A DNA stretch of 64,000 nt. It comes from Oscillospiraceae bacterium. Its GTDB lineage: Bacteria; Bacillota; Clostridia; Oscillospirales; CAG-272. Positions within the stretch are counted from its first letter, which is position 1, and each line of letters starts with the position of its first letter. The translations under genes were made by a program, and so were the position numbers. A model generated the notes under the pieces. The model worked only from the letters and a program-made list of their open reading frames with translations, made no database searches and was not told the origin of the DNA. Positions 45,227 to 60,605 of the stretch are shown here, piece after piece. The DNA is taken from positions 2,614 to 66,613 of the forward strand of contig SVRN01000009.1 of NCBI GenBank assembly GCA_015064805.1, read 5' to 3'.

Positions 45227-45255
45227 TTGACTTTTTCTCGAAAATAGAGTACAAT
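45227..45255 (+). promoter_or_regulatory. sigma-A-type promoter for the OB-fold lipoprotein gene
   Basis: TTGACT, 17-nt spacer, TACAAT. Confidence 0.6.
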
Positions 45256-45288
45256 AGTCGTATCTTGTAAAAAAGAAAGAGGAATACT

Positions 45289-47373
45289 ATGAAGCTTACG
45301 AAAATTCTCTCCCTTCTGCTCGCGTTGCTCATGCTCGTCAGCATGATCGCCTGCACCCCCGAGACCCCTGACACCCCCGACGATGAAAAGCCCGACGTCG
45401 ATCAGCCCGGTGATGAAAAACCGGATGACGAAAAGCCCGAGGACAAATATGAAACCATCACCATCGCCCAGGCGCTTGAGCTATGCGGCGAGGTCGGTAA
45501 CATCACCACCGAGCGCTACTACATCCGCGCCAAGATCAAGACCATTGTCAACGCCGCCTACGGCCAGATGATCATCGAGGACGAAACGGGCGAGATCTCC
45601 GTTTACGGCACCTACAGCGCCGACGGCGAGATCAACTACAGCGCCATGGACGAAAAGCCCTACAAGGGTGACGAGGTCCTGCTTCATTGTATTCTCCAGA
45701 ACTATAACGGCACCAAGGAAGTCAAAAACGCCCGTCTGATCGAGTTCAAGAAGAACGACGCGGTCGTTGACCTCACTGCCTACACCACCGCCACCATCGC
45801 CGAGGCCAGAGCGGCCGCTGTCGGTGCCAAGGTCAAGGTCAGTGGCGTGGTTGCCGCCATCACCTACGCCAACGGCATGAAGCCCATCGGTTTCGTGCTG
45901 GTCGATAACACCCAGTCCATCTACGTCTACGGCGGTGACGCTACCCAGCAGGTCGCCGTTGGTAATAAGGTCGAGCTGGCCGCTTCCAAGACCTATTGGG
46001 TCCTGGGCGACGAGCAGGGCCTGGCCGATAAGTTCGGCTACAAGGGCTGTAACCAGCTCGAGGACGCGTATCTCGTTTCCAACGACAAGAAGACGGACAA
46101 CGTCTTTGATAAGAGCTGGATCCAGGAAAGCACCGTCAAGGACATGCTGGAAGCGCCCGTGACCGAGGACACCACCACCATCATCCGCAAGGTCAACGCC
46201 CTGGTAAGCAAGCGCCCCGGTAACGGCTTCACCAACTACTATTTCAACGATCTGGACGGTACGACGGGTACCTACACCTACACCCAGTGCAACGGCTCTG
46301 ATTTCTCTTGGCTGGACCAGTTCGATGGCAAGATCTGCACCGTCTATCTCATGATCCTCAACGCCAAGTCCACCCAGTCGGGCTGCGTCTATCGCTTCCT
46401 GCCCGTCGCTGTCGAGGACAACGGCTATACCTTTGATAAGAACGGCGCGGCTGAGTTTGCGGTCAAGTACCACGGCCTGACCCAGTTCCTGCCTACCTAT
46501 TCGGGCAATCCCGCGCTCGAGATGACCACGAGCGTTTCCTCCGAGCTGCTTGGCTTTGAAAACGCAACGCTGAGCTACAGCTCCGACAACGAATCTGTCG
46601 TCAAGTTCGTTCCCGTCGGCGACAAGCTGATCATGAACTGCCTGGGCGCAGGCAAGGCGACCGTCACCGTCAAGGGCGCGTACGGCGGCAAGGAATACAG
46701 CGAGACGTTTGAGATTTCCGTAGTGCTCAACGAGGACGTCGATTACGTCAACGTTGCAGGCGCCATCGCCGCCAACAAGGGCGACACCGTGACCGTCAAG
46801 GGCATCGTTGGTCCTTCTCTGGTCAACAAGACCGGCTTCTACCTTATCGATGAAACGGGCGTGATCGCCGTTCAGACGGATGCCGAGACCATGGCAACGC
46901 TGCAGATCGGTCACGAGGTGATCCTTGAGGCGGTCCGTCACATCAACACCAAGGGCGGCACCAACTACTATGGCCAGACCTGCCTGAACGACGCCAAGGT
47001 CGTTTCCAATGCCTACGGCAAGCACGAGTATTCCACTGCTACCTTTGTGTCGGACAAGACGCTCAAGCAGGTTTATGATCTGAATCCCATGACCGACTAT
47101 ACCACGACCGTTTTCGTGCTGAAGGCGACCGTCACGGTAGAGGAGGCACAGTATTACACCAACATTTACCTGACCGATGGCAACGGTACTCAGCTGCGTC
47201 TGTATTGCTCCAATGCCGGTCAGTACGGCTGGCTCAAGGCGTTTGCGGGACAGGAGGTCACGGTTGAGGTTGCGGCTTGTAACTGGAACGATAAAAACTA
47301 TTACACCGGTTGCGTGCTGGCCGTGATTACCAACGAGGGTAAGATCTGCAACGAGCTGAACTTCTCAAAATGA
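45289..47373 (+). CDS. surface lipoprotein with multiple OB-fold-like domains and one Ig-like (Big_2-like) domain
   Basis: Lipobox LVSMIAC and a DEKPD linker. The domain YYIRAKIKTIVNAAYGQMIIEDETGEISVYGTYSADG...GDEVLLHCILQNYNGTKEVKNARL is homologous to the repeats in 54572-58006. Confidence 0.85.
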   Translation: MKLTKILSLLLALLMLVSMIACTPETPDTPDDEKPDVDQPGDEKPDDEKPEDKYETITIAQALELCGEVGNITTERYYIRAKIKTIVNAAYGQMIIEDETGEISVYGTYSADGEINYSAMDEKPYKGDEVLLHCILQNYNGTKEVKNARLIEFKKNDAVVDLTAYTTATIAEARAAAVGAKVKVSGVVAAITYANGMKPIGFVLVDNTQSIYVYGGDATQQVAVGNKVELAASKTYWVLGDEQGLADKFGYKGCNQLEDAYLVSNDKKTDNVFDKSWIQESTVKDMLEAPVTEDTTTIIRKVNALVSKRPGNGFTNYYFNDLDGTTGTYTYTQCNGSDFSWLDQFDGKICTVYLMILNAKSTQSGCVYRFLPVAVEDNGYTFDKNGAAEFAVKYHGLTQFLPTYSGNPALEMTTSVSSELLGFENATLSYSSDNESVVKFVPVGDKLIMNCLGAGKATVTVKGAYGGKEYSETFEISVVLNEDVDYVNVAGAIAANKGDTVTVKGIVGPSLVNKTGFYLIDETGVIAVQTDAETMATLQIGHEVILEAVRHINTKGGTNYYGQTCLNDAKVVSNAYGKHEYSTATFVSDKTLKQVYDLNPMTDYTTTVFVLKATVTVEEAQYYTNIYLTDGNGTQLRLYCSNAGQYGWLKAFAGQEVTVEVAACNWNDKNYYTGCVLAVITNEGKICNELNFSK

Positions 47374-47390
47374 GATAACTGAATGATTTT

Positions 47391-47429
47391 ACAGCGGCAT
47401 CGCACGAGAATGCGGTGCCGCTGTTTTTT
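47391..47429 (+). terminator. intrinsic terminator after the OB-fold lipoprotein gene
   Basis: ACAGCGGCATCGCA...TGCGGTGCCGCTGT, then TTTTTT. Confidence 0.75.
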
Positions 47430-47652
47430 CGCAAACGCAAAAGCTGAAGATGCCCACCTTCGCGCAAATATGAGCGAAGTGAAACGTAGCGACGTTTGCG
47501 CGTTGCGGGAATCCAAAGGGCATTAGGCCCTTTGGCGCGTTTCTTCCGCCACTTCTTGCCGCGTAGCAAGAAGTGGCATAATAAGCTGAACAGCGAGCGC
47601 GTGCCGCAGGCACAGGGCAAGCGTCAAAAGAAGAAGTGGTGAGGAATTTCAC
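47430..47652 (+). repeat. HME copy 11 (right half only)
   Basis: Only the J module, the K hairpin, the C hairpin and the end are present. Confidence 0.8.
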
Positions 47653-47756
47653 CCCCTTCCTCCCCCCTTTTCCCCCGTGGTCATAAACGCCAAAAAACAC
47701 CCCCTTTTTTTGTCACTTTCGCCATGCTTTTTTGCCGAAAAATCTCGAAAATATCA

Positions 47757-47785
47757 TTGATTTTATCACGGAATTGTGGTACAAT
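47757..47785 (+). promoter_or_regulatory. sigma-A-type promoter for the RDD gene / ABC locus
   Basis: TTGATT, 17-nt spacer, TACAAT, with TGG as an extended -10. Confidence 0.55.
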
Positions 47786-47849
47786 ATCTATGCATGTATA
47801 TTAATATGTAATCTTTTGCACGGACCGTGCCTGAAAAGGGGAATTACCC

Positions 47850-48611
47850 ATGATGCTTGATCTGCAAAAAGCGAGCGTGCTCAAACGCGTCTCGGCTTTT
47901 CTTTTGGATATCATATTGCTGCTGATCCTGATTACGGGATTTGCCTTCGTTATGTCGGTCGTTACAGGCTACGACGGCTATAACGAGCGCCTGGAGGCCG
48001 TGGAGCAAACGTACGAGGAGAAATACGGCGTTTCCTTTGATATCTCGGAAGAAGAATACAACAAAATGACCGAGGATCAGCGCAAATACTTCGACGAAGC
48101 CTATGCGGAATTTGCCAAGGACGAAGACGCGCTTTACCTCTACAATATGCAGTTTAATCTGATCCTGATGATCTCCACCGTCAGCATCCTGCTCGCCTAC
48201 GTCGTGCTGGAGCTGATTTTGCCGCTCGTCTTCAAAAACGGCCAGACCGTCGGCAAAAAGATCTTCGGCATCGCCCTCGTGCACACCAACGGCGTCCGCC
48301 TTTCGACTCTGGCGCTGTTCGTCCGTACCGTCCTGGGCAAATTCACGCTTGAGACCATGATTCCCGTGTATATCTTCATCATGGCCTTGTTCGGAACGCT
48401 GGGTCTGACGGGCACCATCATGCTGCTGCTCATTCTCGTGCTGCAGATCGGCGTGATCCTCATTACCAAGACCAATTCCTGCATCCACGACCTGTTGGCG
48501 AACACCGTCGCGGTCGACCTCTCCTCCCAGATGATCTTCGACTCCGTTGACGATATGAACGAATACAAAAAGAAGATCCACGCCGAGCAGGTCAAAAACG
48601 CGGACTATTGA
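47850..48611 (+). CDS. RDD-family membrane protein
   Basis: KRVSAFLLDIILLLIL start and three to four TM segments. The family call is from memory. Confidence 0.6.
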   Translation: MMLDLQKASVLKRVSAFLLDIILLLILITGFAFVMSVVTGYDGYNERLEAVEQTYEEKYGVSFDISEEEYNKMTEDQRKYFDEAYAEFAKDEDALYLYNMQFNLILMISTVSILLAYVVLELILPLVFKNGQTVGKKIFGIALVHTNGVRLSTLALFVRTVLGKFTLETMIPVYIFIMALFGTLGLTGTIMLLLILVLQIGVILITKTNSCIHDLLANTVAVDLSSQMIFDSVDDMNEYKKKIHAEQVKNADY

Positions 48612-48677
48612 CCCGCACCCCACGTTGAGATTCAATAAATTAAAAATAAATTTTTCAATTCAAGAAAGGGTTTTTGT

Positions 48678-49769
48678 ATGAAGGTTGTTTTGCAAAATTT
48701 GACAAAGATCTTCCCCAGCCGCAACAAGAAATCGAATGAAGAGGTTGTTGCGGTCAACGACTTTACTTTTGAGATTCCCGACGGAAAGCTCATCGGCTTG
48801 CTCGGCCCCTCCGGCTGCGGTAAGAGTACGACGCTGTATATGATCAGCGGTCTGCAGAAGCCGACGGGCGGTAAGATCTTCTTTGGCGACGACGACGTGA
48901 CCGAGCTGTCGCCCGAGAACAGAGGCATTGGTCTTGTGTTCCAGAACTACGCGCTGTACCCCCACATGACGGTCATGCAGAACATCATGTTCCCGCTGCA
49001 GAACCTCAAGGGCGCCGACAAGATGGACAAGAGCACCATGATCGAGCGTGCTTATCAGGCAGCCAAGCTCGTTCAGATCGACGAGCTGATGGACCGTAAG
49101 CCCAGCGAGCTGTCGGGTGGTCAGCAGCAGAGAGTTGCGATCGCACGTGCGCTGGTCAAGATGCCTAAGGTACTGCTGCTCGACGAGCCGCTGTCCAACC
49201 TGGACGCAAGACTGCGTCTGCAGACGCGCGAGGAGATCCGCCGCATCCAGAAGGAAACGGGCATCACCACCATCTTCGTTACCCACGACCAGGAAGAGGC
49301 CATGTCCATTTCCGATATGATCGTCGTTATGAAGCTGGGCGTGCTGCAGCAGATCGGTAAGCCTCAGGAGGTTTACGACGATCCCGCAAACCTGTTCGTC
49401 GCCAAGTTCCTGGGTACGCCTCCCATCAACGTATTCAATGGTGAGGTCAAGGACGGTAAGCTGTATATCGGCGAAGAGGCCGTTTTGGACGTTGCGGGCG
49501 TTGAGGACCAGAAGGTCACCGTCGGCATCCGTCCCGAGGGCTTTGTCGTAGATGAAAACGGTCCTCTGACCTGCAACCTCAATAACGTTGAGATCATGGG
49601 CCGCGACGTCAGCGTCGTTTCGACCAACGAGTCCTCCCAGAACCCCGTCATCCGTTCTATCGTCGATTCGGATACCAAGATCGCCGCAGCAGAAACGGTA
49701 CGCTTCTCGCTCAAGCCGCACAAGGTATTCCTGTTCAACGTAGAAACGGAAGAACGCATCCGCTTTTGA
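48678..49769 (+). CDS. CUT1-type ABC importer ATP-binding subunit (MsmX/UgpC-like)
   Basis: GPSGCGKST, LSGGQQQRVAIARA, LLLDEPLSNLD, plus a C-terminal TOBE-like domain. Confidence 0.93.
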   Translation: MKVVLQNLTKIFPSRNKKSNEEVVAVNDFTFEIPDGKLIGLLGPSGCGKSTTLYMISGLQKPTGGKIFFGDDDVTELSPENRGIGLVFQNYALYPHMTVMQNIMFPLQNLKGADKMDKSTMIERAYQAAKLVQIDELMDRKPSELSGGQQQRVAIARALVKMPKVLLLDEPLSNLDARLRLQTREEIRRIQKETGITTIFVTHDQEEAMSISDMIVVMKLGVLQQIGKPQEVYDDPANLFVAKFLGTPPINVFNGEVKDGKLYIGEEAVLDVAGVEDQKVTVGIRPEGFVVDENGPLTCNLNNVEIMGRDVSVVSTNESSQNPVIRSIVDSDTKIAAAETVRFSLKPHKVFLFNVETEERIRF

Positions 49770-49780
49770 GGTGACGCGCT

Positions 49781-50722
49781 ATGGTAGAAAGTAAAAACTC
49801 ATGGAAAGCGTGGATCTACCTGTCGCCCGCCATCGTGCTGCTGCTCGTTTTCACCGCTTGGCCGATCGTTAACACGGTCCGCATGGCGTTCCTTGAAAAC
49901 TACAGCTCCATGGGCGCCGCAGGTGGTATTACCTATCAGTTTGGCATTGGCAACTTCGTGCAGGTCCTTCAATATGATAAGTTTATCACCTGCCTGGTCA
50001 ATACCATGTTGCTTTGCGTGCTGACGGTTCCGATCTCGACGCTGCTTGCGCTGATCATCGCCGTATGCCTCAACGCCATCAGACCCTTCCAGCGTCTGCT
50101 TCAGACCATTTTCTTCCTTCCCTACGTAACCAACTCCATCGCCATCGGTATGGTATTCGCCGCCATGTTCAACATGATCGGTAATAACTTCGGCGGCGAG
50201 AACGAGCTGATCATTACTGCGGGTATCGTTAACAGCGTCATCGAGTTCTTTGGCGGCGAGCCCATCAACTGGATCAACGCCGGCTCGAGCTATTTCCATA
50301 ATATGTTCGTTATGGTCGTTTACATCGTGTGGAACGCCCTGCCCTTCAAGATCCTCGTCCTTCTGGGCGGCTTGCAGAGCGTCAACAAGCAGTACTACGA
50401 GGCGGCAAAGGTGGACGGTACCTCCCGTCTGCGCACCTTCACCCGCATCACGGTGCCGCTGCTCTCTCCCATGATCGCTTACGTCGTGATCACCGGCTTC
50501 ATCGGTGGCTTTAAGGAATATTCCAGCATCGTTGGTATTTTCGGCGAAGATATGGGTCCCACCGGTGACCCTCGCCGTCTGAATACCATGGTTGGATTTA
50601 TCTACGACTCCCTGAGCAACCACCAGGGACGTGCGAGCGCTGCCGCACTGATTCTCTTTGGTATCATCTTTATCGTTACCATGATCAATCTGTACGTCAG
50701 CAAGAAAAAGACCCATTATTAA
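49781..50722 (+). CDS. ABC importer permease (MalF/UgpA-like)
   Basis: Six TM segments and the EAA loop YYEAAKVDGTSRLRTFTRITVPLL. Confidence 0.9.
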   Translation: MVESKNSWKAWIYLSPAIVLLLVFTAWPIVNTVRMAFLENYSSMGAAGGITYQFGIGNFVQVLQYDKFITCLVNTMLLCVLTVPISTLLALIIAVCLNAIRPFQRLLQTIFFLPYVTNSIAIGMVFAAMFNMIGNNFGGENELIITAGIVNSVIEFFGGEPINWINAGSSYFHNMFVMVVYIVWNALPFKILVLLGGLQSVNKQYYEAAKVDGTSRLRTFTRITVPLLSPMIAYVVITGFIGGFKEYSSIVGIFGEDMGPTGDPRRLNTMVGFIYDSLSNHQGRASAAALILFGIIFIVTMINLYVSKKKTHY

Positions 50723-50734
50723 GGAGGTGACGAT

Positions 50735-51640
50735 ATGACTGAACAAAAGACTGTAACCATGCAGGAAAGAGATATGCAAAAGGTCAACGTCCGTCAGCGC
50801 GTCGTTAAGATCGCGGTGCAGATCATGCTGTACACCTTCCTTGTCCTGATGGCTCTGATTATTCTGTTCCCCTTCTACTTTATGCTCGTCTCCTCCGTCA
50901 AGAGCCTGGCTGAGTATAAAGAGCCCATCGTGTCGTTCGCACAAACGCTTTGGCCGCGAAAGGTCATCCTTTACAACTACGTTGAGGCCTTCAAAACCGC
51001 CAACCTTGGCCGTCTGTTCCTCAACACCATGTACGTCGGTATCGTTTCCACGCTGCTCTCTCTCGTCATCACCGTGCTGACCGCCTTCGCGTTCGCACGT
51101 CTGGAGTTCAAGGGCAAGAACGCGCTGTTTGCCGCTCTGCTTGCGACCATGATGATCCCCGGTGAGCTGTTTACCATCACCAACTACGCGACGGTCAGCG
51201 CCTTGCATTGGAAAAATACCTATACGGTACTGATCGTTCCCTTCCTCGTCAGCGTCTTCTACATCTACCTGCTCCGCCAGAACTTCTTGCAGATCCCCAA
51301 CGAGCTGTATCTGGCCGCCAAGGTAGACGGTACGAGCGATCTGAAATATCTGTGGAAGGTCATGATCCCGCTGGCACTCCCCTCGCTCATCTCCATCACC
51401 ATTCTGAAAATGATGGGCGCGTGGAACTCCTACGTCTGGCCCCGACTGGTCGCTAACGACGAGGCATACCACCTGATCACCAACGGTCTGCGTAATGCCT
51501 TTACCGATGCGAAGGGTGAGGTCAATATCCCCGTTCAGATGGCCGCCGTTGCCATCGTATCCTTCCCGCTGTTCCTCGTCTTCATCTTCCTGCGTAAGTA
51601 TATTATGAAGGGCGTTTCGAGAAGCGGTATCAAGGGTTGA
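50735..51640 (+). CDS. ABC importer permease (MalG/UgpE-like)
   Basis: EAA loop LYLAAKVDGTSDLKYLWKVMIPLALP. Confidence 0.9.
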   Translation: MTEQKTVTMQERDMQKVNVRQRVVKIAVQIMLYTFLVLMALIILFPFYFMLVSSVKSLAEYKEPIVSFAQTLWPRKVILYNYVEAFKTANLGRLFLNTMYVGIVSTLLSLVITVLTAFAFARLEFKGKNALFAALLATMMIPGELFTITNYATVSALHWKNTYTVLIVPFLVSVFYIYLLRQNFLQIPNELYLAAKVDGTSDLKYLWKVMIPLALPSLISITILKMMGAWNSYVWPRLVANDEAYHLITNGLRNAFTDAKGEVNIPVQMAAVAIVSFPLFLVFIFLRKYIMKGVSRSGIKG

Positions 51641-51713
51641 TCGATAATAACAGTCCCCCCGACTGATTATTATACAAATATTTTTCAAACAAAAGAAAGA
51701 GAGGATTCTAATT

Positions 51714-53135
51714 GTGAAAACAAGAATCGTATCGCTGGTGTTGGCCATCGTTATGGTCATGGCTTCGCTGTTTACGTTTGCTGCGTGCAACCCCAACCAG
51801 CAGGCCGGTGACGTAACCGAGTTCAATTTCGACACCGAAACTCCGGTGACTATCACCTTCTACCACACCATGGGCGAGGCTCTGCGCACCGTCCTGGACA
51901 AGTACATCGTTGAATTCAACAAGCTGTACCCCAACATCACCGTTGAGCACAAGCAGGTCGGCGGCTACGACGACGTTCGCGAGCAGATCAAGACGGAGAT
52001 CACCGTCGGTGACCAGCCCAACATCGCTTACTGCTATCCCGACCACGTAGCGCTCTACAACGTTGCTCAGGCCGTTCAGACGTTGGACGATCTGATCGCT
52101 TCCACCGAGACCGTAACCCGCGCTGACGGCACCACCGAGCAGCTGGGCCTGACGCAGCAGCAGATCGACAACTTCATCGACGGCTACTACAACGAGGGTA
52201 AGCAGTTCGGTGACGGCAAGATGTACACGCTGCCTATGTCCAAGTCCACCGAGGTCCTCTACTACAACAAGACCTTCTTTGACGATCATCCCGACCTCAA
52301 GGTTCCCACCACCTGGGACGAGCTGGAGGAGACCTGCGCAAAGATCAAGGAGATCGACCCCAAGAGCATTCCTCTGGGCTACGACTCCGAGGCAAACTGG
52401 TTCATCACCATGTGCGAGCAGTACGGCTCTCCCTACACCAGCGCAACCGGTGAGCACTTCCTGTTCGATAACGAGGTCAACCGCGGCTTCGTCGCAGAGT
52501 TCCGTGAATGGTACAAGAAGGGCTACGTAACCACCCAGGAGATCTCCGGCGGTTACACCTCTGCTCTGTTCACCAAGGATCCCGCTGAGGAAGGTAACTG
52601 CTACATGTGCATCGGTTCCTCTGCAGGTGCAAACCACCAGATCCCCAAGAACGACGACGGTTCCTTCAAGTTCGAGGTTGGTATCACCTCCATTCCTCAG
52701 GTCAACGCTGAAGCTCCCAAGGTTATCTCTCAGGGTCCTTCGCTGTGCATCTTCAAGAAGGTTAACGCTCAGGAGGTTCTCGCTTCCTGGCTGTTCGTCA
52801 AGTTCCTGACCACCACCGTTGACTTCCAGGCTGAATTCGGTATGACCTCCGGCTACGTTCCCGTACTGGAAAACGTTACCGATAACGCTGTTTACGCAGA
52901 AGAGCTCAAGCACGCCAACGGTTACGAGGGCCTGGCTCTGCTGTCCACCAAGGTATGCCTTGAGCAGGTCGACGCTTACTACACCTCCCCCGCATTCAAC
53001 GGTTCTTCCACCGCTCGTGACGAGGTTGGTAAGCTGATGCAGGTATGTCTGACCACCTCCGAGAGCGACGTTGCCGCTGCCATCAAGGCTGCGTTCGAGG
53101 CCGCTGTCGCTGAGTGTGAGTATCAGGCAGACTAA
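51714..53135 (+). CDS. extracellular solute-binding lipoprotein (family 1)
   Basis: GTG start behind AGAGAGGA, lipobox FTFAAC, size typical of CUT1 binding proteins. Confidence 0.85.
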   Translation: MKTRIVSLVLAIVMVMASLFTFAACNPNQQAGDVTEFNFDTETPVTITFYHTMGEALRTVLDKYIVEFNKLYPNITVEHKQVGGYDDVREQIKTEITVGDQPNIAYCYPDHVALYNVAQAVQTLDDLIASTETVTRADGTTEQLGLTQQQIDNFIDGYYNEGKQFGDGKMYTLPMSKSTEVLYYNKTFFDDHPDLKVPTTWDELEETCAKIKEIDPKSIPLGYDSEANWFITMCEQYGSPYTSATGEHFLFDNEVNRGFVAEFREWYKKGYVTTQEISGGYTSALFTKDPAEEGNCYMCIGSSAGANHQIPKNDDGSFKFEVGITSIPQVNAEAPKVISQGPSLCIFKKVNAQEVLASWLFVKFLTTTVDFQAEFGMTSGYVPVLENVTDNAVYAEELKHANGYEGLALLSTKVCLEQVDAYYTSPAFNGSSTARDEVGKLMQVCLTTSESDVAAAIKAAFEAAVAECEYQAD

Positions 53136-53141
53136 TTTCTT

Positions 53142-54521
53142 ATGATGATGTTTACTCATTCCACCGGGCGGGGTATCCCCGCCCGCGCGGGAGTGAAGCT
53201 GATGGCTTTGCTCCTGGCGATGCTTATGACGCTGGCTTGCGTCGTATCCTGCGGCCCCGGTAGCGAGGATCCCGCGGATCAGCGCGAGCATATCGACTAC
53301 GTCGCTGACACCAAGCTGGATATGACCAGTGAAAGTCGCAAGATCGAGGCGACCGTCAAGTCGTACATCGACGGCGACACCACCCACTTTTACGTCAAGG
53401 AATCCGAAGAGTTCCCCGAGGGCGTCGTCAAGGCCAGATACCTTGCCATCGACACCCCCGAATCGACGGGTAAGCTTGAGGAGTGGGGAAAAACCGCAGC
53501 AGCGTTCACCAAAACGACGCTGAAAAATGCCGCTGCCATTATGCTGGAGTCGGATACCGACGTCTGGAATAAGGACAACAACGGCAGACACCTGCTCTGG
53601 ATCTGGTACAAGAGTACGGCAGACGCCGAGTGGCGTAACCTGAACATTGAAATTCTGCAGTCCGGCTACGCGATCGCGTCCAACTCGGGTCAGAACCGCT
53701 ACGGTAAGACCTGTCTTGCCGCGCTGGCGCAGGCAACGGCTGAAAAGCTGTACGTCCACTCGGGCGAAAAGGACCCCACCTTCCCCTACGGTGCCGCAAC
53801 CGAGATCACCATCAAGGAGCTGCGCACCAACCGCGAGGAGTACGAGGGTGTCAAGGTCGCCGTTGAGGGCATTATTTCGCAGGATACCAACGGCACGCTC
53901 TACGTCGAGCAATACGACGAAGAGGACGAGCGTTGGTACGGTATGCAGGTATTCTACGGCTACAATCTGGCAACCAGCGCCAAGAGATTCCTCAAGGCAG
54001 GCAACCGCGTTCGCATCGTCGGCACCTTCCAGTATGCCGAGGTCGTCAACGCTTACCAGATCGCAGGTCTGGAATACGACCAGATGAAGCCGGGCGATCC
54101 CGCCTATACCAGTCTGATCGAAAGCGAGCAGACCATCCCCTACACCGAGATCGTAAGTCTGTCCGACTTTATGACGGGCAAGACCGAGCTGACGGTGGGC
54201 GAAGAGAAGGTTTCCTTCGATAATAACGAGCTTGCACTTTATACCTCCGTTACCCTCAAGGGCCTGACCGTGGTTGATACCTGGACGACCCAGACGGGCG
54301 ACAACGCAGGCGCGATCTCGCTGACCTGCGAAAAGGACGGCGTGCGCATCACCATCCGCACCATCAAGCTGTACGAAAACGGTGAGCTGGTCAAGGCCGA
54401 ACGCTTTATGGGCAAGACGATCGACGTCGTTGGCGTCGTCGACTCCTTTACGCCCGAGGGCTCGACCGATGCGCAAAAGCAGATCAAGGTATTTACCCTG
54501 GCTGCCATTACGATTCACTGA
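53142..54521 (+). CDS. secreted/lipoprotein thermonuclease (SNase) fused to C-terminal OB-fold-like domains
   Basis: Lipobox CVVSCG. The SNase core is IDGDTTHFYV...KARYLAIDTPES...NGRHLLWIWY...EILQSGYA, with the R/D/T/E catalytic pattern retained. Confidence 0.88.
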   Translation: MMMFTHSTGRGIPARAGVKLMALLLAMLMTLACVVSCGPGSEDPADQREHIDYVADTKLDMTSESRKIEATVKSYIDGDTTHFYVKESEEFPEGVVKARYLAIDTPESTGKLEEWGKTAAAFTKTTLKNAAAIMLESDTDVWNKDNNGRHLLWIWYKSTADAEWRNLNIEILQSGYAIASNSGQNRYGKTCLAALAQATAEKLYVHSGEKDPTFPYGAATEITIKELRTNREEYEGVKVAVEGIISQDTNGTLYVEQYDEEDERWYGMQVFYGYNLATSAKRFLKAGNRVRIVGTFQYAEVVNAYQIAGLEYDQMKPGDPAYTSLIESEQTIPYTEIVSLSDFMTGKTELTVGEEKVSFDNNELALYTSVTLKGLTVVDTWTTQTGDNAGAISLTCEKDGVRITIRTIKLYENGELVKAERFMGKTIDVVGVVDSFTPEGSTDAQKQIKVFTLAAITIH

Positions 54522-54571
54522 TTTATTTTTTTAATTAATTAAATCAAAATCAACAAGGAGAAAGTAAAATC

Positions 54572-57500
54572 ATGAAAAAGTTTCTTGTAATCCTCATGGT
54601 TCTGGCGCTTTGCGTGCTGACTTTTGTCGCTTGCGAGCCCCAACAGCCTGTGGATCCTCAGCCTGAGGTTACGTATGACGCAAACGCTGCGGTAACGTAC
54701 GTTTTCAACCTCTACAAGGATAGCACCACCAAGCAGGAAGACTTCGAGGTGACTGCAACCGTTCAGGTCGGCGGCATTGCTTACGACATCGAATGGACCG
54801 CCAGCGAGGGCGCAACCGTCACCAAGAAGGACGATAAGACCTATACCGTTGACATTGACGAAAAGTCCGCTACGGGCTATGAGTTCACCCTGACGGCAAC
54901 CGCTAAGGCTGCTGACGGTACCACCGCCCAGAAGGCGATCAAGTTCAACGTTCCCAAGTACGAGGTTCTTTCCTTCGAGCAGTACATGGCTGCAAAGGAG
55001 GATGACACCGTTCTTATCGAAGGTATCGTCGTTGCCATCAACTCCAAGGCCGCAGGCAATACCAGAAACCATCTGTTCCTGGCAGACGCTAACGTCGTTG
55101 GCGGCTACTACTCCTACCAGATGGACGCTGACCCCGTTGCTGACCTTGGCATCGAGGTCGGTATGACCGTTTCCGTCTCCGGTCCCATTGCTCCTTACCA
55201 CGGCATGCAGGAGATCAAGGGCGGTACGGCTAAGATCGTTGACGCTACCAAGAAGGAGTACGCTCCCGTTGACATCACCGACAAGTTTGCTGCAGGCGAG
55301 TCCCTGAAGAACTACGTCGGTCTGCCCGTAACCATCAAGGGCGTTGAGATCGCCGGCCAGGAGCTGGGCGGCACCTCCGATTACCTTAAGTTCAAGCTGA
55401 ACGAGGAGATCTCTTACATCCGTACCTACGTTACCGACTTCCCCACCACGCTTAAGATCGTCGTGGGCGAGGACGGCACCACGAGCAGCCCCGATAAGAC
55501 CACCATCGACGAGGCTCACGCAGAAAAGTTCGGCTGGAAGGCTAACGTTACCGGTATTCTGGTTCTGTACAACAGCGCACCTTACCTCATTCCTATGGAC
55601 ACCGGCTGCTTCGAGTACCTGGAAAAGGTTGAGAAGACCCCCGAGCAGAAGATCGCTGACACCCTGGAGGGCCTGAAGCTCGACGCAAGCTTCACCTCCG
55701 ATGCAGTCGTTGAGCTGCTCGCAGCAGGCGCCGCTTATCCCGAGGTTACTCTGACCTGGACCTCCAACAGCGAGCACGCTGTCATCGCTGACGGCAAGCT
55801 GACCATCACCGTTCCCGATGCGGCTACCGAGGCTATCGTAACCGTTACCGCAACCTGCGACGGCAAGACCGCTACCAAGGAATTCAAGATCAAGCTCTCC
55901 AAGTCCGTAACTCCCGTTGCTGACATCATCGCTCTTGGCGCATCCAAGGAGCACAACACCTACACCGAGGAGAAGTACCTCGTTGCAGGTATCATTACCG
56001 AGGTTTACAACACCCAGTACGGTAACATGAAGATCACCGACGATCAGGGCAACGTCCTGACCATCTACGGTACCTACAGCGCAGACGGTGCAGACCGTTA
56101 CGACGCTATGGCAAACAAGCCCGTTGCTGGCGACTACGTCGTTATCTTCGGTATCGTTGGCCAGTACAACGGTACTCCTCAGGTGAAGAACGGTTGGATC
56201 ATGTCCTTCACCACTCCCACCTCCGTTAAGGATACCATCGATCTTGGCGCATCCAAGGAGCACAATACCTACACCGAGGAAAAGCACCTGGTAACCGGTG
56301 TCATCACCGAGGTTTACAACACCCAGTACGGTAACATGAAGATCACCGACGCTGAAGGCAACATCCTGACCATCTACGGTACCTACAGCGCAACCGGTGC
56401 TCTCAGATACGACGCTATGGAAAAGAAGCCCGTTGCAGGTGACACCGTTACCATCTACGGTATCGTTGGTCAGTACAACGGCACGCCTCAGATCAAGAAC
56501 GGTTGGATCGTTGCTAACGTTGCAGGCGCAGGCGAAACGCCCGATCCCGATCCCGAGCCCTCCGACGATCCCGCTCCCGATTCTACTCTGACCGTTGAGC
56601 AGGTCATCGCTCTTGGCGCATCCAAGGAGCACAACACCTACACCGAGGGCAAGTACTACGTCACCGGTGTGATCACCGAGATCTACAACACCCAGTACGG
56701 TAACATGAAGATTACCGACGATAAGGGCAACATCCTGACCATCTACGGCACCTTCGACGCAACCGGTGCAAACCGCTTCGACGCTATGGCTAACCAGCCT
56801 GCTGTTGGCGACACCGTTACCATCTACGGTATCGTTGGTCAGTACAACAATACCCCCCAGATCAAGAACGGTTGGATCACCGAACAGAAGCCTGCCGCTC
56901 CTGAGGCGCCCTCCTTCATCGAGGTTCCGATCGACAGCGATAAGTGGGATCAGTGCAAGCTGAAGCTGGACTTCCAGGGAATGCCCATGTCCCAGCACAG
57001 AAACTGGGCTGCAGGCAGCTCCCTCCATGTAGGCGCCTTCATGTATCGCTACGGTGAGATCACTGCCGTCGGCGAAGCGCCTGTCATTGATATTTCCGGT
57101 ATGAAGTATATCGAATTCGACGTTTACGTTTCCCATATCGACGTGATTGCTGAGGCTCTGTTCAGCTTTGAGCTGACCTCCAGTGGAGCCTCCGATAAGG
57201 AGGAGAACTGCAAGAAGTTCTATGGTAAGGACACCGGTTGGGTTGTTGGTTGGAACCACGTGAAGTGGAATCTGAGCGATTTCACCGAGCACGGTCCCGA
57301 CGGCAAGCCTATGGACGCTACCAAGTGGAACTTCATCCGTTGGTACAGCGATTCCACCATCACCGTTGGTGAAGAAAAGCTGAAGGTTGCGATTGCTAAC
57401 ATCAAGTTCACCAACGACGATTACGTTGAAGAGGAAAAGCCTGAGGAGCCCGAGACTCCCGAGACTCCCGAGACTCCCGCAACCGGCAACAAGGCTGACT

Positions 57501-58006
57501 TCAACACCTTCTACGACGGTGCGGCAAAGACCCAGTACGCAACCCATACGACGGCAGGCGGCTGGACGGTCAACAATGCGCAGGTCATCATTGGTACCAA
57601 CGACGCTGACGTAGCAAACACCCAGACCGGTGTGTTCTCCTTCATCGGCGGCGCAGGCACCTCTGCTGCCGTTATTAACGGTAAGACCAGTGCAGTCGGC
57701 AGCATCGTTTCCCCCACGCTGGCAAACGGTATTGCTTCTCTGAGCTTCCAGTACGGTCATCCTTACTCCGAGGCCAATGGTGTTAACATCACCATTACCA
57801 TCAAGAAGGGTGGCGAGGTTGTGGCAACCAAGGACCTTGTAATTGCAGCCGCTGAGGTTGCACAGAATACGGCATACAGCTACACCTGGACGCTGGATAC
57901 GGCTGTTGATGGCGAGTTCACCATTGAGATCGTTAACAACTGCCCTACTGCTTCTTCCAAGAACAAGGACAGACTTGCTATTTGGGATATCACCTGGAGC
58001 AAGTGA
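54572..58006 (+). CDS. 1144-aa surface lipoprotein with OB-fold-like domains, including three tandem repeats of about 100 aa
   Basis: Lipobox LTFVAC. Carries three copies of ALGASKEHNTYTEEKY.V.G.ITE.YNTQYGNMKITD..GN.LTIYGT.....RYDAM...P..GD.V.I.GIVGQYNGTPQ.KNGWI. Confidence 0.88.
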   Translation: MKKFLVILMVLALCVLTFVACEPQQPVDPQPEVTYDANAAVTYVFNLYKDSTTKQEDFEVTATVQVGGIAYDIEWTASEGATVTKKDDKTYTVDIDEKSATGYEFTLTATAKAADGTTAQKAIKFNVPKYEVLSFEQYMAAKEDDTVLIEGIVVAINSKAAGNTRNHLFLADANVVGGYYSYQMDADPVADLGIEVGMTVSVSGPIAPYHGMQEIKGGTAKIVDATKKEYAPVDITDKFAAGESLKNYVGLPVTIKGVEIAGQELGGTSDYLKFKLNEEISYIRTYVTDFPTTLKIVVGEDGTTSSPDKTTIDEAHAEKFGWKANVTGILVLYNSAPYLIPMDTGCFEYLEKVEKTPEQKIADTLEGLKLDASFTSDAVVELLAAGAAYPEVTLTWTSNSEHAVIADGKLTITVPDAATEAIVTVTATCDGKTATKEFKIKLSKSVTPVADIIALGASKEHNTYTEEKYLVAGIITEVYNTQYGNMKITDDQGNVLTIYGTYSADGADRYDAMANKPVAGDYVVIFGIVGQYNGTPQVKNGWIMSFTTPTSVKDTIDLGASKEHNTYTEEKHLVTGVITEVYNTQYGNMKITDAEGNILTIYGTYSATGALRYDAMEKKPVAGDTVTIYGIVGQYNGTPQIKNGWIVANVAGAGETPDPDPEPSDDPAPDSTLTVEQVIALGASKEHNTYTEGKYYVTGVITEIYNTQYGNMKITDDKGNILTIYGTFDATGANRFDAMANQPAVGDTVTIYGIVGQYNNTPQIKNGWITEQKPAAPEAPSFIEVPIDSDKWDQCKLKLDFQGMPMSQHRNWAAGSSLHVGAFMYRYGEITAVGEAPVIDISGMKYIEFDVYVSHIDVIAEALFSFELTSSGASDKEENCKKFYGKDTGWVVGWNHVKWNLSDFTEHGPDGKPMDATKWNFIRWYSDSTITVGEEKLKVAIANIKFTNDDYVEEEKPEEPETPETPETPATGNKADFNTFYDGAAKTQYATHTTAGGWTVNNAQVIIGTNDADVANTQTGVFSFIGGAGTSAAVINGKTSAVGSIVSPTLANGIASLSFQYGHPYSEANGVNITITIKKGGEVVATKDLVIAAAEVAQNTAYSYTWTLDTAVDGEFTIEIVNNCPTASSKNKDRLAIWDITWSK
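55905..56885 (+). repeat. three in-frame tandem coding repeats (about 309 and 369 nt apart) within the 1144-aa lipoprotein
   Basis: CTTGGCGCATCCAAGGAGCACAA recurs at 55934, 56243 and 56612. Confidence 0.9.
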
Positions 58007-58030
58007 GTAAAGACTTAGGTCAATAAAGAA

Positions 58031-58067
58031 AGGAACCGCATCTTCGGATGCGGTTCTCTTTTTTTGT
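58031..58067 (+). terminator. intrinsic terminator after the 1144-aa lipoprotein gene
   Basis: GAACCGCATC, loop TTCG, GATGCGGTTC, then TCTTTTTTT. Confidence 0.8.
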
Positions 58068-58076
58068 TTGGCGGGA

Positions 58077-58857
58077 GTTTTATCGACTTCTCCTCGGGAC
58101 GCGCGTACAGCTGACGCGCCGCGCTGTGCCAACTTGGATGCCACTTCTTGGTGCGCCCCAAGAAGTGGCGGAAGAAACCAGATTTCGGCAAGCCGAAATC
58201 GCAAGTTTGCTTGTTCGCGGTCGCGAACATCGCGCAAGCGCGGGCGCAAACATTGCGCGCCAAAGGGCCTAATGCCCTTTGGATTCCCGCAACGCGAAAA
58301 GTCGCGGCGCTTCGCTCTGCTCATTTTTTCGCGAAGGGTTGCATCTTCAGCTTTTGCGTTGGCGTTTTAAATAAAAACGCCGACACGGAAGGCGCACGCA
58401 AGCGAAACTGCAAAAGTTTTTGCCATCTGCGACGCACCCGAGTCAAACAAAATTTCAAGCAAAACGATTTTGTTTTCTGCGCCTGCCGCCAAAACGGGCT
58501 GTCGAGGCGCCAGCCCCTACCGAGAAAGAAAAAGCTTTTTCTTCCTCCGACTGCCGCGCGTGGTGGCAAGGCGGCGGGAGATGCAGCAGGGTAAAGATGT
58601 CTTTCTCCCCAGTCTACCTTGTAGCGCGGCACGGAAAGGGGGTGCCCAGGGGGGAACGCCTGGGCGCGTTTCTTGGTTACTTCTTGCCGCGTGGCAAGAA
58701 GTGACACGAAAAGCTGGCACACCGAGCGCGCGAAGCCATATTTCGCAAGCGAAATAGCAAGTTTTGTTCGCCCGCTAAACACGGGCGTCATGCAAGCATG
58801 AACACAAAACTAGCAGGGCGAGGCCGTAGAAGAAGTTGCTGAAAATTCAGCTAAACT
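58077..58857 (-). repeat. HME copy 12 (reverse orientation, with X, REP-2 and Y modules)
   Basis: X lies at about 58170-58262, REP-2 at 58496-58520 and Y at 58733-58813. Confidence 0.85.
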
Positions 58858-58879
58858 CCCCCCTCCCCGTCGCCCTCTA

Positions 58880-58908
58880 TTGACTTTTCCCCCGCCATGC
58901 TCTATAAT
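58880..58908 (+). promoter_or_regulatory. sigma-A-type promoter for the barnase-like RNase gene
   Basis: TTGACT, 17-nt spacer, TATAAT. Confidence 0.6.
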
Positions 58909-58947
58909 ATAAATAATGTAGAAAATCCCCGAAAAAGGAAGTTACCC

Positions 58948-60447
58948 ATGAACGCTCTGAAAAAACTCACCCTGCTGCTCCTGGTCCTCGCCACGCTGAC
59001 AAGCGCCCTGCTTGGCTGCCAGCGCCCCGACCAGCCCCAGCCCCCCGAAATCGATCTGCCCACCGCCATCGACATCATCGGCGCGGATCGCGTTTCGCTG
59101 ACCCTCGGAGACGAGCTTCAATTGAGAATCGACCAAAGCGAAGAGATATTGTCCATGATCAAGTGGACAGCCACGAGCGACTGCGTCAGCGTCAGCGACA
59201 GCGGCCTCGTCACCACCAACCGCGTCGGCACCGTGCTCGTCACCGCCACACTGGGCGAGCTGAGCGACAAGGTGCTCATCACCGTCGTTGACACCACCAA
59301 CCGCCCCGAGTCCGTCACCCTTACCGCAGAAAAAACCACGCTGATGATCGGCGAGTCGACCGACCTGATCGTGTCCGTCGCCCCTGCAGGCGCGGCATCG
59401 GGCGCCATTTTCAGCGTCACGAGCGGCTCTGATGTGATCACGGTTCAGGACGGCAGAGTCGTCGCCCAAAAGGAGGGCACTGCCACCGTCGTTGCGACCG
59501 TCGCAGGTGTTGCGAGCGAGGAGCTGACCATCACCGTCGCTCCTGCCGTCGACCCCTACGAGGGCATGAGCGCGGACGAGTTTTACGCCAATTACACCGT
59601 CGCGGACAGCTATCTGGACGCCTACTACCGCACCCAGCACGGCTTTATGTCGGGATCGCTGACCGTTCCCGATCAAGCACCCGTGCTCTCCGAGTATCAG
59701 CCCATGCGCGACGGTATGCTCATCCGCAACCGCGCGACGCGCTACGAGGACGACGGCAACACCTACGTCGTGGTGAATGCTTATGGGCAGGAGGTCATGG
59801 AGATCTACCGCGGTGCGGCCTACATCACGCTGGAGGAGGTTGCCGCTTACGTCTTCGCCTTCGGCGACGTGCCCGCCAACTATTCCGCTACCAAAAAGAC
59901 CAAACCGACCCAGAGCGTCTGGGGCATTTACCTGCGCGTCAATCACACCCAGTTCACGGGTGATACCTCGCGCTACCCCTACGAGCCCGAGCTGCCCAAC
60001 ATCAGCGGCTGTGGCGGAGATTTCGTTTATTACGAGATCGACATCGGTACGACGGGCAACGACTGCGATCCCGCCTATCGCCCTGCCCTTTACAACAACG
60101 GCGTGTCCATCATCCGCGGCGCCTCCCGCATCGTCTACGCCCGCTTTGATAAGAACAACAACCACATCACCGAGCCCGACGAAAAGTTCGTCTTCTACAC
60201 CTACAACCACTACAACGATTTTCAGGAATATCTGAACTATTTTGGCGGCTGGGGCGAGATGTTCGGTAATATCACGGGCGGCGGTGTGATCTCGGATAAG
60301 CAAAACTGCAATCCCACGCCCTACGTGCCCGTCTGGCGGGGAGATCTGTCCGAGGCTACGCTTCAATCTCCCACGCGCGAGCAAAACGACTACGTCGAGA
60401 TCGTCTGGTGCCTGCCCGTCGAATGGACGGAGCGCAAGCACGCGTAA
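58948..60447 (+). CDS. lipoprotein with Ig-like (Big_2-like) domains and a C-terminal barnase/RNase Sa-family ribonuclease domain
   Basis: Lipobox ALLGCQ. The C-terminus aligns by eye with barnase: VAAYVFAFGDVPANY / VADYLQTYHKLPDNY, FVYYEIDI / TWREADI (catalytic Glu), RGASRIVYA / RNSDRILYS (Arg), YTYNHYNDF / KTTDHYQTF (catalytic His). Confidence 0.85.
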   Translation: MNALKKLTLLLLVLATLTSALLGCQRPDQPQPPEIDLPTAIDIIGADRVSLTLGDELQLRIDQSEEILSMIKWTATSDCVSVSDSGLVTTNRVGTVLVTATLGELSDKVLITVVDTTNRPESVTLTAEKTTLMIGESTDLIVSVAPAGAASGAIFSVTSGSDVITVQDGRVVAQKEGTATVVATVAGVASEELTITVAPAVDPYEGMSADEFYANYTVADSYLDAYYRTQHGFMSGSLTVPDQAPVLSEYQPMRDGMLIRNRATRYEDDGNTYVVVNAYGQEVMEIYRGAAYITLEEVAAYVFAFGDVPANYSATKKTKPTQSVWGIYLRVNHTQFTGDTSRYPYEPELPNISGCGGDFVYYEIDIGTTGNDCDPAYRPALYNNGVSIIRGASRIVYARFDKNNNHITEPDEKFVFYTYNHYNDFQEYLNYFGGWGEMFGNITGGGVISDKQNCNPTPYVPVWRGDLSEATLQSPTREQNDYVEIVWCLPVEWTERKHA

Positions 60448-60506
60448 CAGAATAGAAAAAACGCCAAGACAAGGGCTCCTTCTCATAAGGAAGTTTGATT
60501 TCTCCT

Positions 60507-60533
60507 TGTAGGGACCGGCGTCCTCGACGGTCC
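60507..60533 (+). repeat. REP-1 hairpin, left boundary of the cargo cassette
   Basis: TGTAGGGACCGGCGTCCTCGACGGTCC. Confidence 0.9.
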
Positions 60534-60605
60534 ATCACAATAATTGTATTGCAGAAAACAAAGATTAACCCCGACAGATTTTTTAATCTGTCGGGGTCAA
60601 ATTTA

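Follow-up and report, generated by a model that had tools for sequence, protein, structure and literature searches.

What does a gut bacterium do with a row of genes for surface nucleases, large OB-fold lipoproteins and a sugar-type ABC transporter? The question is raised by a stretch of 64,000 nucleotides (nt) of Oscillospiraceae bacterium (GCA_015064805.1, contig SVRN01000009.1), called the window in the following, to which all positions refer. In an initial annotation, nine genes had been read as one locus that captures and cuts nucleic acids at the cell surface and imports the products through a CUT1-type transporter. Our analysis narrows this locus to a cassette of seven genes, which is probably an extracellular nucleic-acid scavenging system feeding the cell with nucleic-acid fragments. 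This reading is carried by the fixed linkage of a nuclease gene to the transporter genes across species, by the conserved catalytic residues of the nuclease and by the phosphate-binding residues predicted in the binding protein.

Domains were called by Pfam and NCBIfam profile searches, and operon units were predicted from promoter and terminator scans together with intergenic distances. All nine plus-strand open reading frames (ORFs) were recovered with unchanged coordinates. The features discussed below are as follows (aa, amino acids).

45227..45255, plus strand, promoter-like site of the 694-aa lipoprotein gene (TTGACT-17-TACAAT, 10/12)
45289..47373, plus strand, 694-aa lipoprotein with one OB repeat at aa 56-154, a lineage-specific accessory gene
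47391..47424, plus strand, intrinsic terminator 3' of the 694-aa gene (14-bp stem, then T run)
47757..47785, plus strand, promoter-like site of the seven-gene operon (TTGATT-17-TACAAT, extended TG)
47850..48611, plus strand, RDD-family membrane protein, operon gene 1 (PF06271, 2.2e-13)
48678..49769, plus strand, ABC ATPase of the MalK/UgpC/MsmX type with a C-terminal regulatory domain (ABC_tran 1e-36, OB_MalK, TOBE_2)
49781..50722, plus strand, permease 1, MalF/UgpA-like (BPD_transp_1, 7e-19)
50735..51640, plus strand, permease 2, MalG/UgpE-like (BPD_transp_1, 9e-17; UgpE 1.6e-31)
51714..53135, plus strand, family-1 solute-binding lipoprotein, candidate phosphate-ester binder (SBP_bac_8, 5e-36)
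53142..54521, plus strand, SNase lipoprotein, probable start 53202 (PF00565, 2.6e-10)
54572..58006, plus strand, 1144-aa OB-repeat lipoprotein (PF01336, 35.5 bits)
58032..58057, plus strand, intrinsic terminator at the end of the seven-gene operon (11-bp stem, then T run)
58880..58908, plus strand, promoter-like site of the RNase gene (TTGACT-17-TATAAT, 11/12)
58948..60447, plus strand, barnase-type RNase lipoprotein (two Big_2 Ig domains and a C-terminal RNase domain)
60568..60597, plus strand, terminator hairpin 3' of the RNase gene (13-bp stem)

The nine genes fall into three predicted transcription units, of which 45227-47424 holds the 694-aa gene alone, 47757-58057 holds seven genes and 58880-60597 holds the RNase gene. 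Within the middle unit (gene span 47850-58006), the RDD protein is followed by the ATPase, the two permeases, the binding protein, the SNase lipoprotein and the 1144-aa lipoprotein. With one promoter, one terminator and intergenic gaps of 66, 11, 12, 73, 6 and 50 nt, these seven genes are predicted to form one operon. The RNase gene is split from the operon by the operon terminator and a repeat element of about 780 bp. What had been described as a single nine-gene locus is thus one predicted operon flanked by two separate units, the 694-aa and RNase genes having promoters and terminators of their own. Five products carry a lipobox cysteine, namely the 694-aa lipoprotein (C22), the binding protein (C25), the SNase lipoprotein (C37), the 1144-aa lipoprotein (C21) and, in its short form, the RNase (C24). 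In each case the cysteine ends a signal peptide and is kept among relatives, which bears out the lipid anchoring first proposed for the secreted products.

In the closest relative (L001), only about 200 nt separate the RNase gene from the gene of the big lipoprotein, and therefore the repeat element was inserted in the window. GC-rich intergenic repeat elements, labelled 'HME' in the initial annotation, occupy 44385-45205, 47430-47652 and 58077-58857. They lie between a terminator and the promoter that follows, to either side of the 694-aa gene as well as in the gap between operon and RNase. A repeat-element hairpin, CCAAAGGGCATTAGGCCCTTTGG, recurs at 44495-44517, 47513-47535 and 58262-58284, with a variant at 45005-45027.

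Is the arrangement more than a local accident? For 80 related loci with up to 10-kb flanks, in which the binding protein is 62-87% identical, gene content was compared by tblastn and ORF clustering. The order RDD, ATPase, permease, permease, binding protein, SNase, large lipoprotein was colinear and on one strand in 78 of the 80 species loci, wherever the contig reaches. The SNase gene was present in 78 loci, and the RDD gene in all 63 that extend far enough upstream, where it is the invariable first gene of the operon; clustering of the flanking ORFs revealed no conserved gene upstream of it. The large lipoprotein was recognized by its N-terminal part in 69-72 of the 80 loci, and its length varies from 231 to about 1700 aa, with only the N-terminal modules in common. 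Such a gene order, recurring in 78 of 80 species loci, is more than chance. Directly 3' of the big lipoprotein gene, the RNase gene was found in 16 loci besides the window (17 in all), and a homologue of the 694-aa protein was found upstream of the cassette in the closest relative only. For this reason the conserved unit is the seven genes, with the RNase, which occurs in about 30% of loci, as a frequent accessory and the 694-aa protein as a local addition. The prediction that the whole gene set would recur in other genomes was thus borne out for seven of its nine members.

The enzymatic centre of the cassette would be the SNase lipoprotein. Translation probably starts at ATG 53202, which has a GGAG 8 nt upstream. 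The SNase domain (PF00565) scored 41 bits against a cut-off of 21 (2.6e-10), and the AlphaFold2 (AF2) model, built from 56 sequences, reached a predicted local distance difference test (pLDDT) score of 90. Residues ~60-205 of the model superpose on the S. aureus nuclease with Foldseek template-modelling (TM) scores, normalized to the target, of 0.84-0.87 and 28-32% identity. D79 (in DGDT), R99, T105, E107 and R149 are invariant in the 56 sequences. R99, E107 and R149 are the equivalents of the SNase catalytic residues Arg35, Glu43 and Arg87, while the Ca2+ ligands of the family are Asp21, Asp40 and Thr41. The conserved residues support the prediction that the lipoprotein is a nuclease with an intact catalytic site. 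At the position of Asp40 (residue 104), the window has Asp, and most of the 56 aligned relatives have Asn (INTPE). Enzymes of the SNase and barnase families leave 3'-phosphate ends, and the limit products of SNase are 3'-mononucleotides and dinucleotides.

Behind the catalytic domain, residues 235-310 of the AF2 model follow the b1-b2-b3-helix-b4-b5 order of an OB barrel, and residues 345-459 form a second beta domain. The label OB-like for this C-terminal barrel comes only from the modelled topology. Foldseek, for which the whole multi-domain models were dominated by one domain, gave no separate fold match for the C-terminal domains, and an hhalign comparison of the SNase C-terminus with the OB-repeat profile was not significant with profiles as shallow as these.

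How would a polymer be held near this enzyme? The 1144-aa lipoprotein is a plausible candidate, with an OB domain (PF01336) at 35.5 bits against a cut-off of 27 and an AF2 model with a pLDDT of about 90 over residues 33-776. From the N-terminus, an Ig-like domain is followed by two OB-like barrels, an aBig_2 Ig domain, three tandem OB repeats, an unmodelled region (777-968) and a C-terminal beta-sandwich. The three tandem repeats are 72-78% identical to one another and were modelled as five-stranded barrels of b1-b2-b3-(helix)-b4-b5 topology (pLDDT ~90). The best Foldseek match of the whole model was the p204 HIN-dsDNA complex, and lysyl-tRNA synthetases were also listed. The N-terminal part matched the ExeM/NucH model weakly (4.7e-7). 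In the 694-aa lipoprotein, PF01336 reached a sub-threshold 18.3 bits, but aa 56-154 align with every OB repeat of the 1144-aa protein at 36-41% identity (E 2e-17). The remainder consists of beta-rich modules, for which hhalign of the OB-repeat profile gave no significant match, again with too shallow profiles. The description of this protein as multi-OB therefore holds for one repeat, and the rest is without a profile match. Taken together, the profile and fold matches support OB modules of the nucleic-acid-binding type and thus putative binders of DNA or RNA in both lipoproteins; the domain searches back the function first assigned to the repeats, except at the C-terminal end of the 1144-aa protein, to which we return below.

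The region at residues 777-968 of the 1144-aa protein (56900-57475) has a pLDDT of about 25-45. The homologues of the 1144-aa protein are all annotated as 'hypothetical'; one of them (P0232) carries an Endonuclease_NS domain (PF01223/PF13930). Three others (P0157, P0163 and P0166) contain SBP_bac_8, by fusion or by run-through of the gene call, and another (P0210) contains dockerin and cohesin.

What does the transporter carry? The ATPase matched ABC_tran (1e-36), OB_MalK (5e-6) and TOBE_2 (2e-3), with UgpC as the best NCBIfam model (358 bits, under the equivalog cut-off) ahead of MalK (296 bits). Both permeases are of the MalF/MalG type (PF00528 at 7e-19 and 9e-17), and the binding protein matched SBP_bac_8 (5.5e-36) and SBP_bac_1 (8e-25). 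Two BPD_transp_1 permeases, a MalK-type ATPase and a family-1 binding protein assign the transporter to the CUT1 type (TC 3.A.1.1) on profile evidence. The RDD protein, which scored 51.1 bits against a PF06271 cut-off of 24.1, carries an acidic, helical-looking insert of ~60 residues between membrane segments one and two (47850-48611).

The nearest solved relatives of the binding protein were the 7c0f-7c1b series of the PDB (E 8e-19; ~25% identity over ~345 aligned residues), while UgpB (2e-9) and oligosaccharide and sugar binders scored less well. We take the 7C0F-7C1B series to be a dinucleotide binder of Thermus thermophilus. Against the NCBIfam model of UgpB, the binding protein reached 55.6 bits at a cut-off of 411. 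A CUT1 protein of T. thermophilus that binds uridylyl-3'-5'-phosphoguanosine has been published (Chandravanshi et al., FEBS J 2021, as cited in PMC12718374). The phosphate is coordinated by two Tyr and two Ser residues, Tyr64/342 and Ser143/266 in UgpB, which are strictly conserved in UgpB, the glycerophosphocholine (GPC) binder and the dinucleotide binder, and not in glucose binders (PMC12718374). In a sequence alignment with the 7c0f protein, the equivalents Y85, S178, S303 and Y381 of the window's protein fall, at matching spacing, in the GGY, NKS, (T/S)SAG and GYVP motifs, and they are conserved in 80-81 of 81 orthologues. As the point mutants of the 7c0f series hit the NKS Ser and the Thr beside the SAG Ser, both motifs are likely ligand-contact sites. 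Where UgpB has its two-Trp glycerol clamp (Trp188/191), only one conserved Trp is seen (W229, then F230), as read from the 7c0f alignment and not from a direct UgpB alignment. With a score far from the equivalog level and only one Trp at the clamp site, the binding protein does not appear to be UgpB proper. It appears closer to phosphate-ester binders than to sugar binders, and the alignments point to a phosphate ester as the ligand, without fixing which one. Since SNase and barnase-type enzymes leave 3'-phosphates, small 3'-phospho mono- and dinucleotides would be natural candidates.

Could the transporter nevertheless be an ordinary Ugp-like importer of glycerol-3-phosphate (G3P), glycerophosphodiesters or a sugar, with nuclease and OB lipoproteins that do a separate surface job, such as remodelling biofilm DNA or clearing digesta DNA, and merely share the operon? 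UgpC, UgpA, UgpE and UgpB are indeed the best NCBIfam matches of the four transporter parts, every one below cut-off. The phosphate tetrad is common to G3P and GPC binders, and the 1144-aa protein ends in a domain similar to carbohydrate-binding modules. We consider this explanation unlikely. The genes for the binding protein and the SNase lie 6-66 nt apart and were never separated in 78 of 80 species, and a GlpQ-type phosphodiesterase is missing from the cassette. Moreover, the binding protein scores higher against the 7c0f series than against UgpB, it has the single Trp at the clamp site, and the neighbours of the cassette are nucleotide enzymes, not glycerol enzymes.

These neighbours form a convergent block downstream that encodes SurE, two DHH/DHHA1 (NrnA-like) proteins, an HD/HD_assoc phosphohydrolase and, farther on, a thymidine kinase. 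Among the roughly 60 loci with sufficient flanking DNA, the block adjoins the cassette in about 42, and the thymidine kinase is a neighbour in 9 loci. SurE (a 5'/3'-nucleotidase) and the nano-RNases are cytoplasmic enzymes acting on 3'/5'-nucleotides and very short oligonucleotides, and neither the SurE nor the NrnA-like and HD proteins found here have signal peptides. Import of a nuclease product of nucleotide nature, as suggested at the outset, is thus favoured both by a binding protein nearer to phosphate-ester than to sugar binders and by nucleotide-processing neighbours in most other species.

In the window's genome, the SurE-NrnA-NrnA-HD set lies on another contig (C59), directly after a Bmp-type ABC importer. 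There, the minus strand at C59:9821-19726 (L085) encodes a Bmp/PnrA-type binding protein, a double-ATPase, two BPD_transp_2 permeases, the HD phosphohydrolase, two NrnA-like proteins and SurE. This row joins a nucleoside-type ABC importer to the salvage genes that flank the SNase cassette elsewhere. The idea that this genome has the cassette twice, the second time beside SurE/NrnA, was considered and ruled out, as the contig carries the Bmp-type importer instead.

The same genes bear on the form in which a product would enter the cell. If it were imported dephosphorylated, as a nucleoside or a deoxyribose or ribose derivative, an unlinked surface phosphatase would be needed, and none of the 80 loci has a phosphatase or 5'-nucleotidase with a signal peptide in the cassette. 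CUT1 systems do mostly carry uncharged sugars, deoxyribose derivatives had been named as a possibility in the initial annotation, and the nine loci with a neighbouring thymidine kinase would fit. However, the genome already has a Bmp-type importer, the nucleoside-carrying type; the phosphate-binding tetrad is conserved; and SurE and NrnA are cytoplasmic and act on phosphorylated substrates. We therefore regard import after dephosphorylation as very unlikely.

Is a lack of nucleotides the reason for the cassette? Nucleotide auxotrophy was ruled out, as purM and pyrB are present in the genome and a weak purF-like gene stands beside purM. The latter (C76:52993-53964), the only purF-like gene, scored 145 bits against a 350-bit cut-off; a good purM follows 0.8 kb downstream, and pyrB is 4 kb away. 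The gene is best read as a divergent amidophosphoribosyltransferase or a related enzyme. The organism makes purines and pyrimidines itself, and hence the cassette would serve nutrition or salvage and not an obligate supply as in mycoplasmas.

ATG 58948, rather than 58897, is the most likely start of the RNase gene, because the near-consensus promoter at 58880-58908 (11/12) overlaps 58897, while 58948 has a ribosome-binding site and a proper signal peptide. Starting there, the product begins with MNALKKLTLLLLVLATLTSALLGC. The 516-aa protein scored about 17.5 bits against Ribonuclease PF00545, under the gathering cut-off of 24, and PF00545 was matched by all 17 family members, likewise below cut-off (best E 1.4e-4). 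PANY, a Lys, YYEIDIG, RGAxRIVY and YNHYNDF are invariant in the 17 sequences. In these motifs we presumably see barnase Lys27, which binds substrate, and the catalytic Glu73, Arg83, Arg87 and His102. A family-profile search of the PDB sequences returned Ig domains only and no barnase match. The invariant motifs support intact barnase catalytic residues and a predicted RNase activity.

Barnase-type RNases are often toxins, and barstar (PF01337) had no match in the genome, which is 91% complete. Might the surface nucleases then be mainly a barrier or weapon against foreign DNA, phage nucleic acid or competitors' RNA, with a transporter that only recycles the debris? The RNase is optional (17 loci) against a fixed core of SNase and transporter, and all enzymes are predicted to be lipid-anchored to the producer and not released. 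Immunity or secretion genes are not present either, PADLOC not having been searched. This explanation is extremely improbable in our view.

With regard to the scavenging system that we favour, the steps can be arranged as follows. The membrane-anchored 1144-aa lipoprotein and, in the window's lineage, the 694-aa lipoprotein would hold DNA or RNA at the surface through their OB modules. The SNase lipoprotein with its own OB barrel would cut the polymer, in some species together with the barnase-type RNase lipoprotein. Small phosphate esters would be picked up by the family-1 lipoprotein, with the Tyr/Ser tetrad of the clade of UgpB, GPC and dinucleotide binders, and be imported by the MalK-like ATPase with its two permeases. 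In the cytoplasm, NrnA-like nano-RNases, SurE, the HD phosphohydrolase and thymidine kinase may convert them to usable nucleosides and nucleotides. A more specific form of this reading, in which the cassette is a dedicated importer of surface-made 3'-phosphorylated di- or oligonucleotides, the RDD protein a new accessory subunit and the OB lipoproteins a polymer-capture device, is possible, and we put it forward tentatively.

Several observations weigh against the scavenging reading. Residues 970-1144 of the 1144-aa protein (57479-58003) form a beta-sandwich that resembles CBM6, CBM61 and MAM domains with TM scores of 0.5-0.65, so that a carbohydrate- or cell-wall-binding role is possible for this end of the protein. 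Neither the window's genome nor its three closest relatives have kept the adjacency to SurE/NrnA, and the block, which lies on the opposite strand, could be inherited synteny. The genome also encodes the Bmp-type (nucleoside-type) importer and thus an alternative way in for nucleic-acid products. Between 43 and 62 kb of the window, an Rfam scan returned no riboswitch above noise, and neither a riboswitch nor a regulator ties the operon to nucleotide status in this range. As for the ligand, 7c0f is presumed to be the dinucleotide binder, and its structure label reads 'sugar-binding protein'; the tetrad was mapped by motif and spacing, not by structure; and at ~25% identity, several mutated pocket residues of the 7c0f protein differ in the window's protein (Asn to Asp110, Tyr to His308). 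The proposed coupling of surface capture and cleavage to CUT1 import agrees with the tests that were run, apart from the CBM-like end of the 1144-aa protein and a conserved unit that takes in seven of the nine genes.

Does such a system exist elsewhere? To the initial annotation, the coupling of nucleases to a CUT1 importer had seemed undescribed. This does not hold, since SNase-ABC operons of Mycoplasma have been published (PMC3585158, PMC9740415), as has the CUT1 dinucleotide binder of Thermus (as cited in PMC12718374). In the Mycoplasma operons, the genes of a sugar-type ABC transporter share a transcript with those of a binding lipoprotein and an SNase lipoprotein, and uptake of nucleic-acid precursors has been proposed (PMC3585158, PMC9740415). 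These operons are the closest described system and include M. agalactiae MAG_5030 P80, MAG_5040 SNase and MAG_5050-5070, M. hyopneumoniae Mhp379, M. pneumoniae Mpn133, M. hominis MHO_0730 and M. bovis MBOV_RS02825. In mycoplasmas as in Clostridia, a surface SNase lipoprotein, a binding lipoprotein, one ATPase and two permeases belong to one unit, which is a predicted one in Clostridia, and for both the hypothesis is that the transporter receives what the nuclease releases (PMC3585158, PMC9740415). The only hit of the components to a mycoplasma model was a partial one, in which the window's binding protein matched that of the 'P68 family surface lipoprotein' with its N-terminal 180 aa (aa 8-186; 1.8e-10). 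However, the genes for binding protein and nuclease open the operon in mycoplasmas and stand at the end of the Clostridia cassette, and no RDD protein, large OB-repeat lipoprotein or barnase-type RNase has been reported for the Mycoplasma operons. Mycoplasmas are also unable to make nucleotides, in contrast to the window's organism with its purM and pyrB. With the RDD protein, the modular OB lipoproteins, the optional barnase-type RNase and the link to SurE/NrnA as additions, the cassette is a richer form of the Mycoplasma-type system, new in free-living gut Clostridia; a literature search on the cassette in Clostridia found no paper. The nucleoside-binding lipoprotein P48 of mycoplasmas was rejected as a comparator, as it belongs to a different, Bmp-type transporter (PMC12892991).

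Other systems share single features with the cassette. With the Thermus 7c0f protein, the binding protein has in common the NKS Ser, the (T/S)SAG Ser and the GGY and GYVP Tyr; no surface nuclease has been reported with the Thermus dinucleotide-binder gene. In Bacillus subtilis YhcR, OB and SNase domains are paired and 3'-phosphate products are formed. YhcR and the Shewanella nucleases ExeM/NucH are surface-attached, sugar-non-specific nucleases with OB-fold DNA-binding modules of the tRNA_anti-codon type, similar to what is predicted here. In these enzymes the modules stand in one polypeptide, whereas in the Clostridia cassette binding and cutting would be split over several lipoproteins. YhcR also has a 5'-nucleotidase domain that frees nucleosides outside, and the cassette instead has a dedicated importer and no surface phosphatase. 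In the DNA-degradation loci of Candidatus Izemoplasma and marine DNA degraders, genes for extracellular nucleases, a thermonuclease among them, stand beside those for phosphohydrolases and transporters, and these organisms have been shown to grow on DNA (PMC8397711, PMC8289736). The loci encode phosphatases and a phosphate (Pst) transporter, so that the polymer is fully broken down outside the cell; a CUT1 importer, an RDD protein and an OB-repeat lipoprotein are absent. UgpBAEC of E. coli and marine bacteria resembles the cassette transporter in family, architecture and the phosphate-binding two Tyr and two Ser (PMC12718374). It differs by its lower similarity (2e-9), by scores below the equivalog cut-offs, by the absence of the two-Trp clamp from the aligned region of our protein and by its genomic partners.

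DNA and RNA from diet, host and microbes are abundant in the gut, and little is understood of how commensal Firmicutes use them. The cassette is annotated everywhere as 'multiple sugar transport system' and 'hypothetical proteins', and metabolic models therefore miscount it as a sugar system. If our reading is true, (oligo)nucleotides would join the substrate range of CUT1 transporters, and the long-standing mycoplasma hypothesis would gain a testable, non-pathogenic counterpart. If the more specific, tentative reading of a di- or oligonucleotide importer were true as well, this would be the first defined ABC uptake system for oligonucleotides and a Gram-positive nucleic-acid counterpart of the polysaccharide-utilisation loci. 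For ligand screening, the binding protein, at 62-87% identity across 80 species, is a clean target.

How widely is the cassette spread? Relatives of the binding protein number in the thousands. All come from uncultured gut Clostridia and are annotated at most as 'extracellular solute-binding protein' or 'multiple sugar transport system'; at least 541 relatives were confirmed by a pattern scan of one genome per GTDB species. Among sampled genomes, the distribution is patchy. The SNase-OB protein was found in 3 of 11 genomes sampled from the family to which the window belongs, in none of 190 from the rest of its order, and in one further genome (two including the window's own) of 399 sampled evenly across the class. 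Among 1.84 billion representatives, its family comprises 448 clusters at E <= 1e-30.

A few loci deviate from the common picture. A contig labelled Sphaerochaetaceae, a spirochaete (L077, CAVKJG010000019.1), carries the whole cassette with a binding protein 68% identical, and two NrnA genes follow directly on the same strand; this is either horizontal transfer or a binning or labelling error. In eight loci (L014, L017, L022, L037, L048, L054, L061 and L080), ORF clustering placed two or three tandem binding-protein ORFs before the SNase gene. If these are true duplicates, they hint at a diversified ligand specificity. Finally, two loci (L035 and L079) carry a second, partial transporter set upstream.

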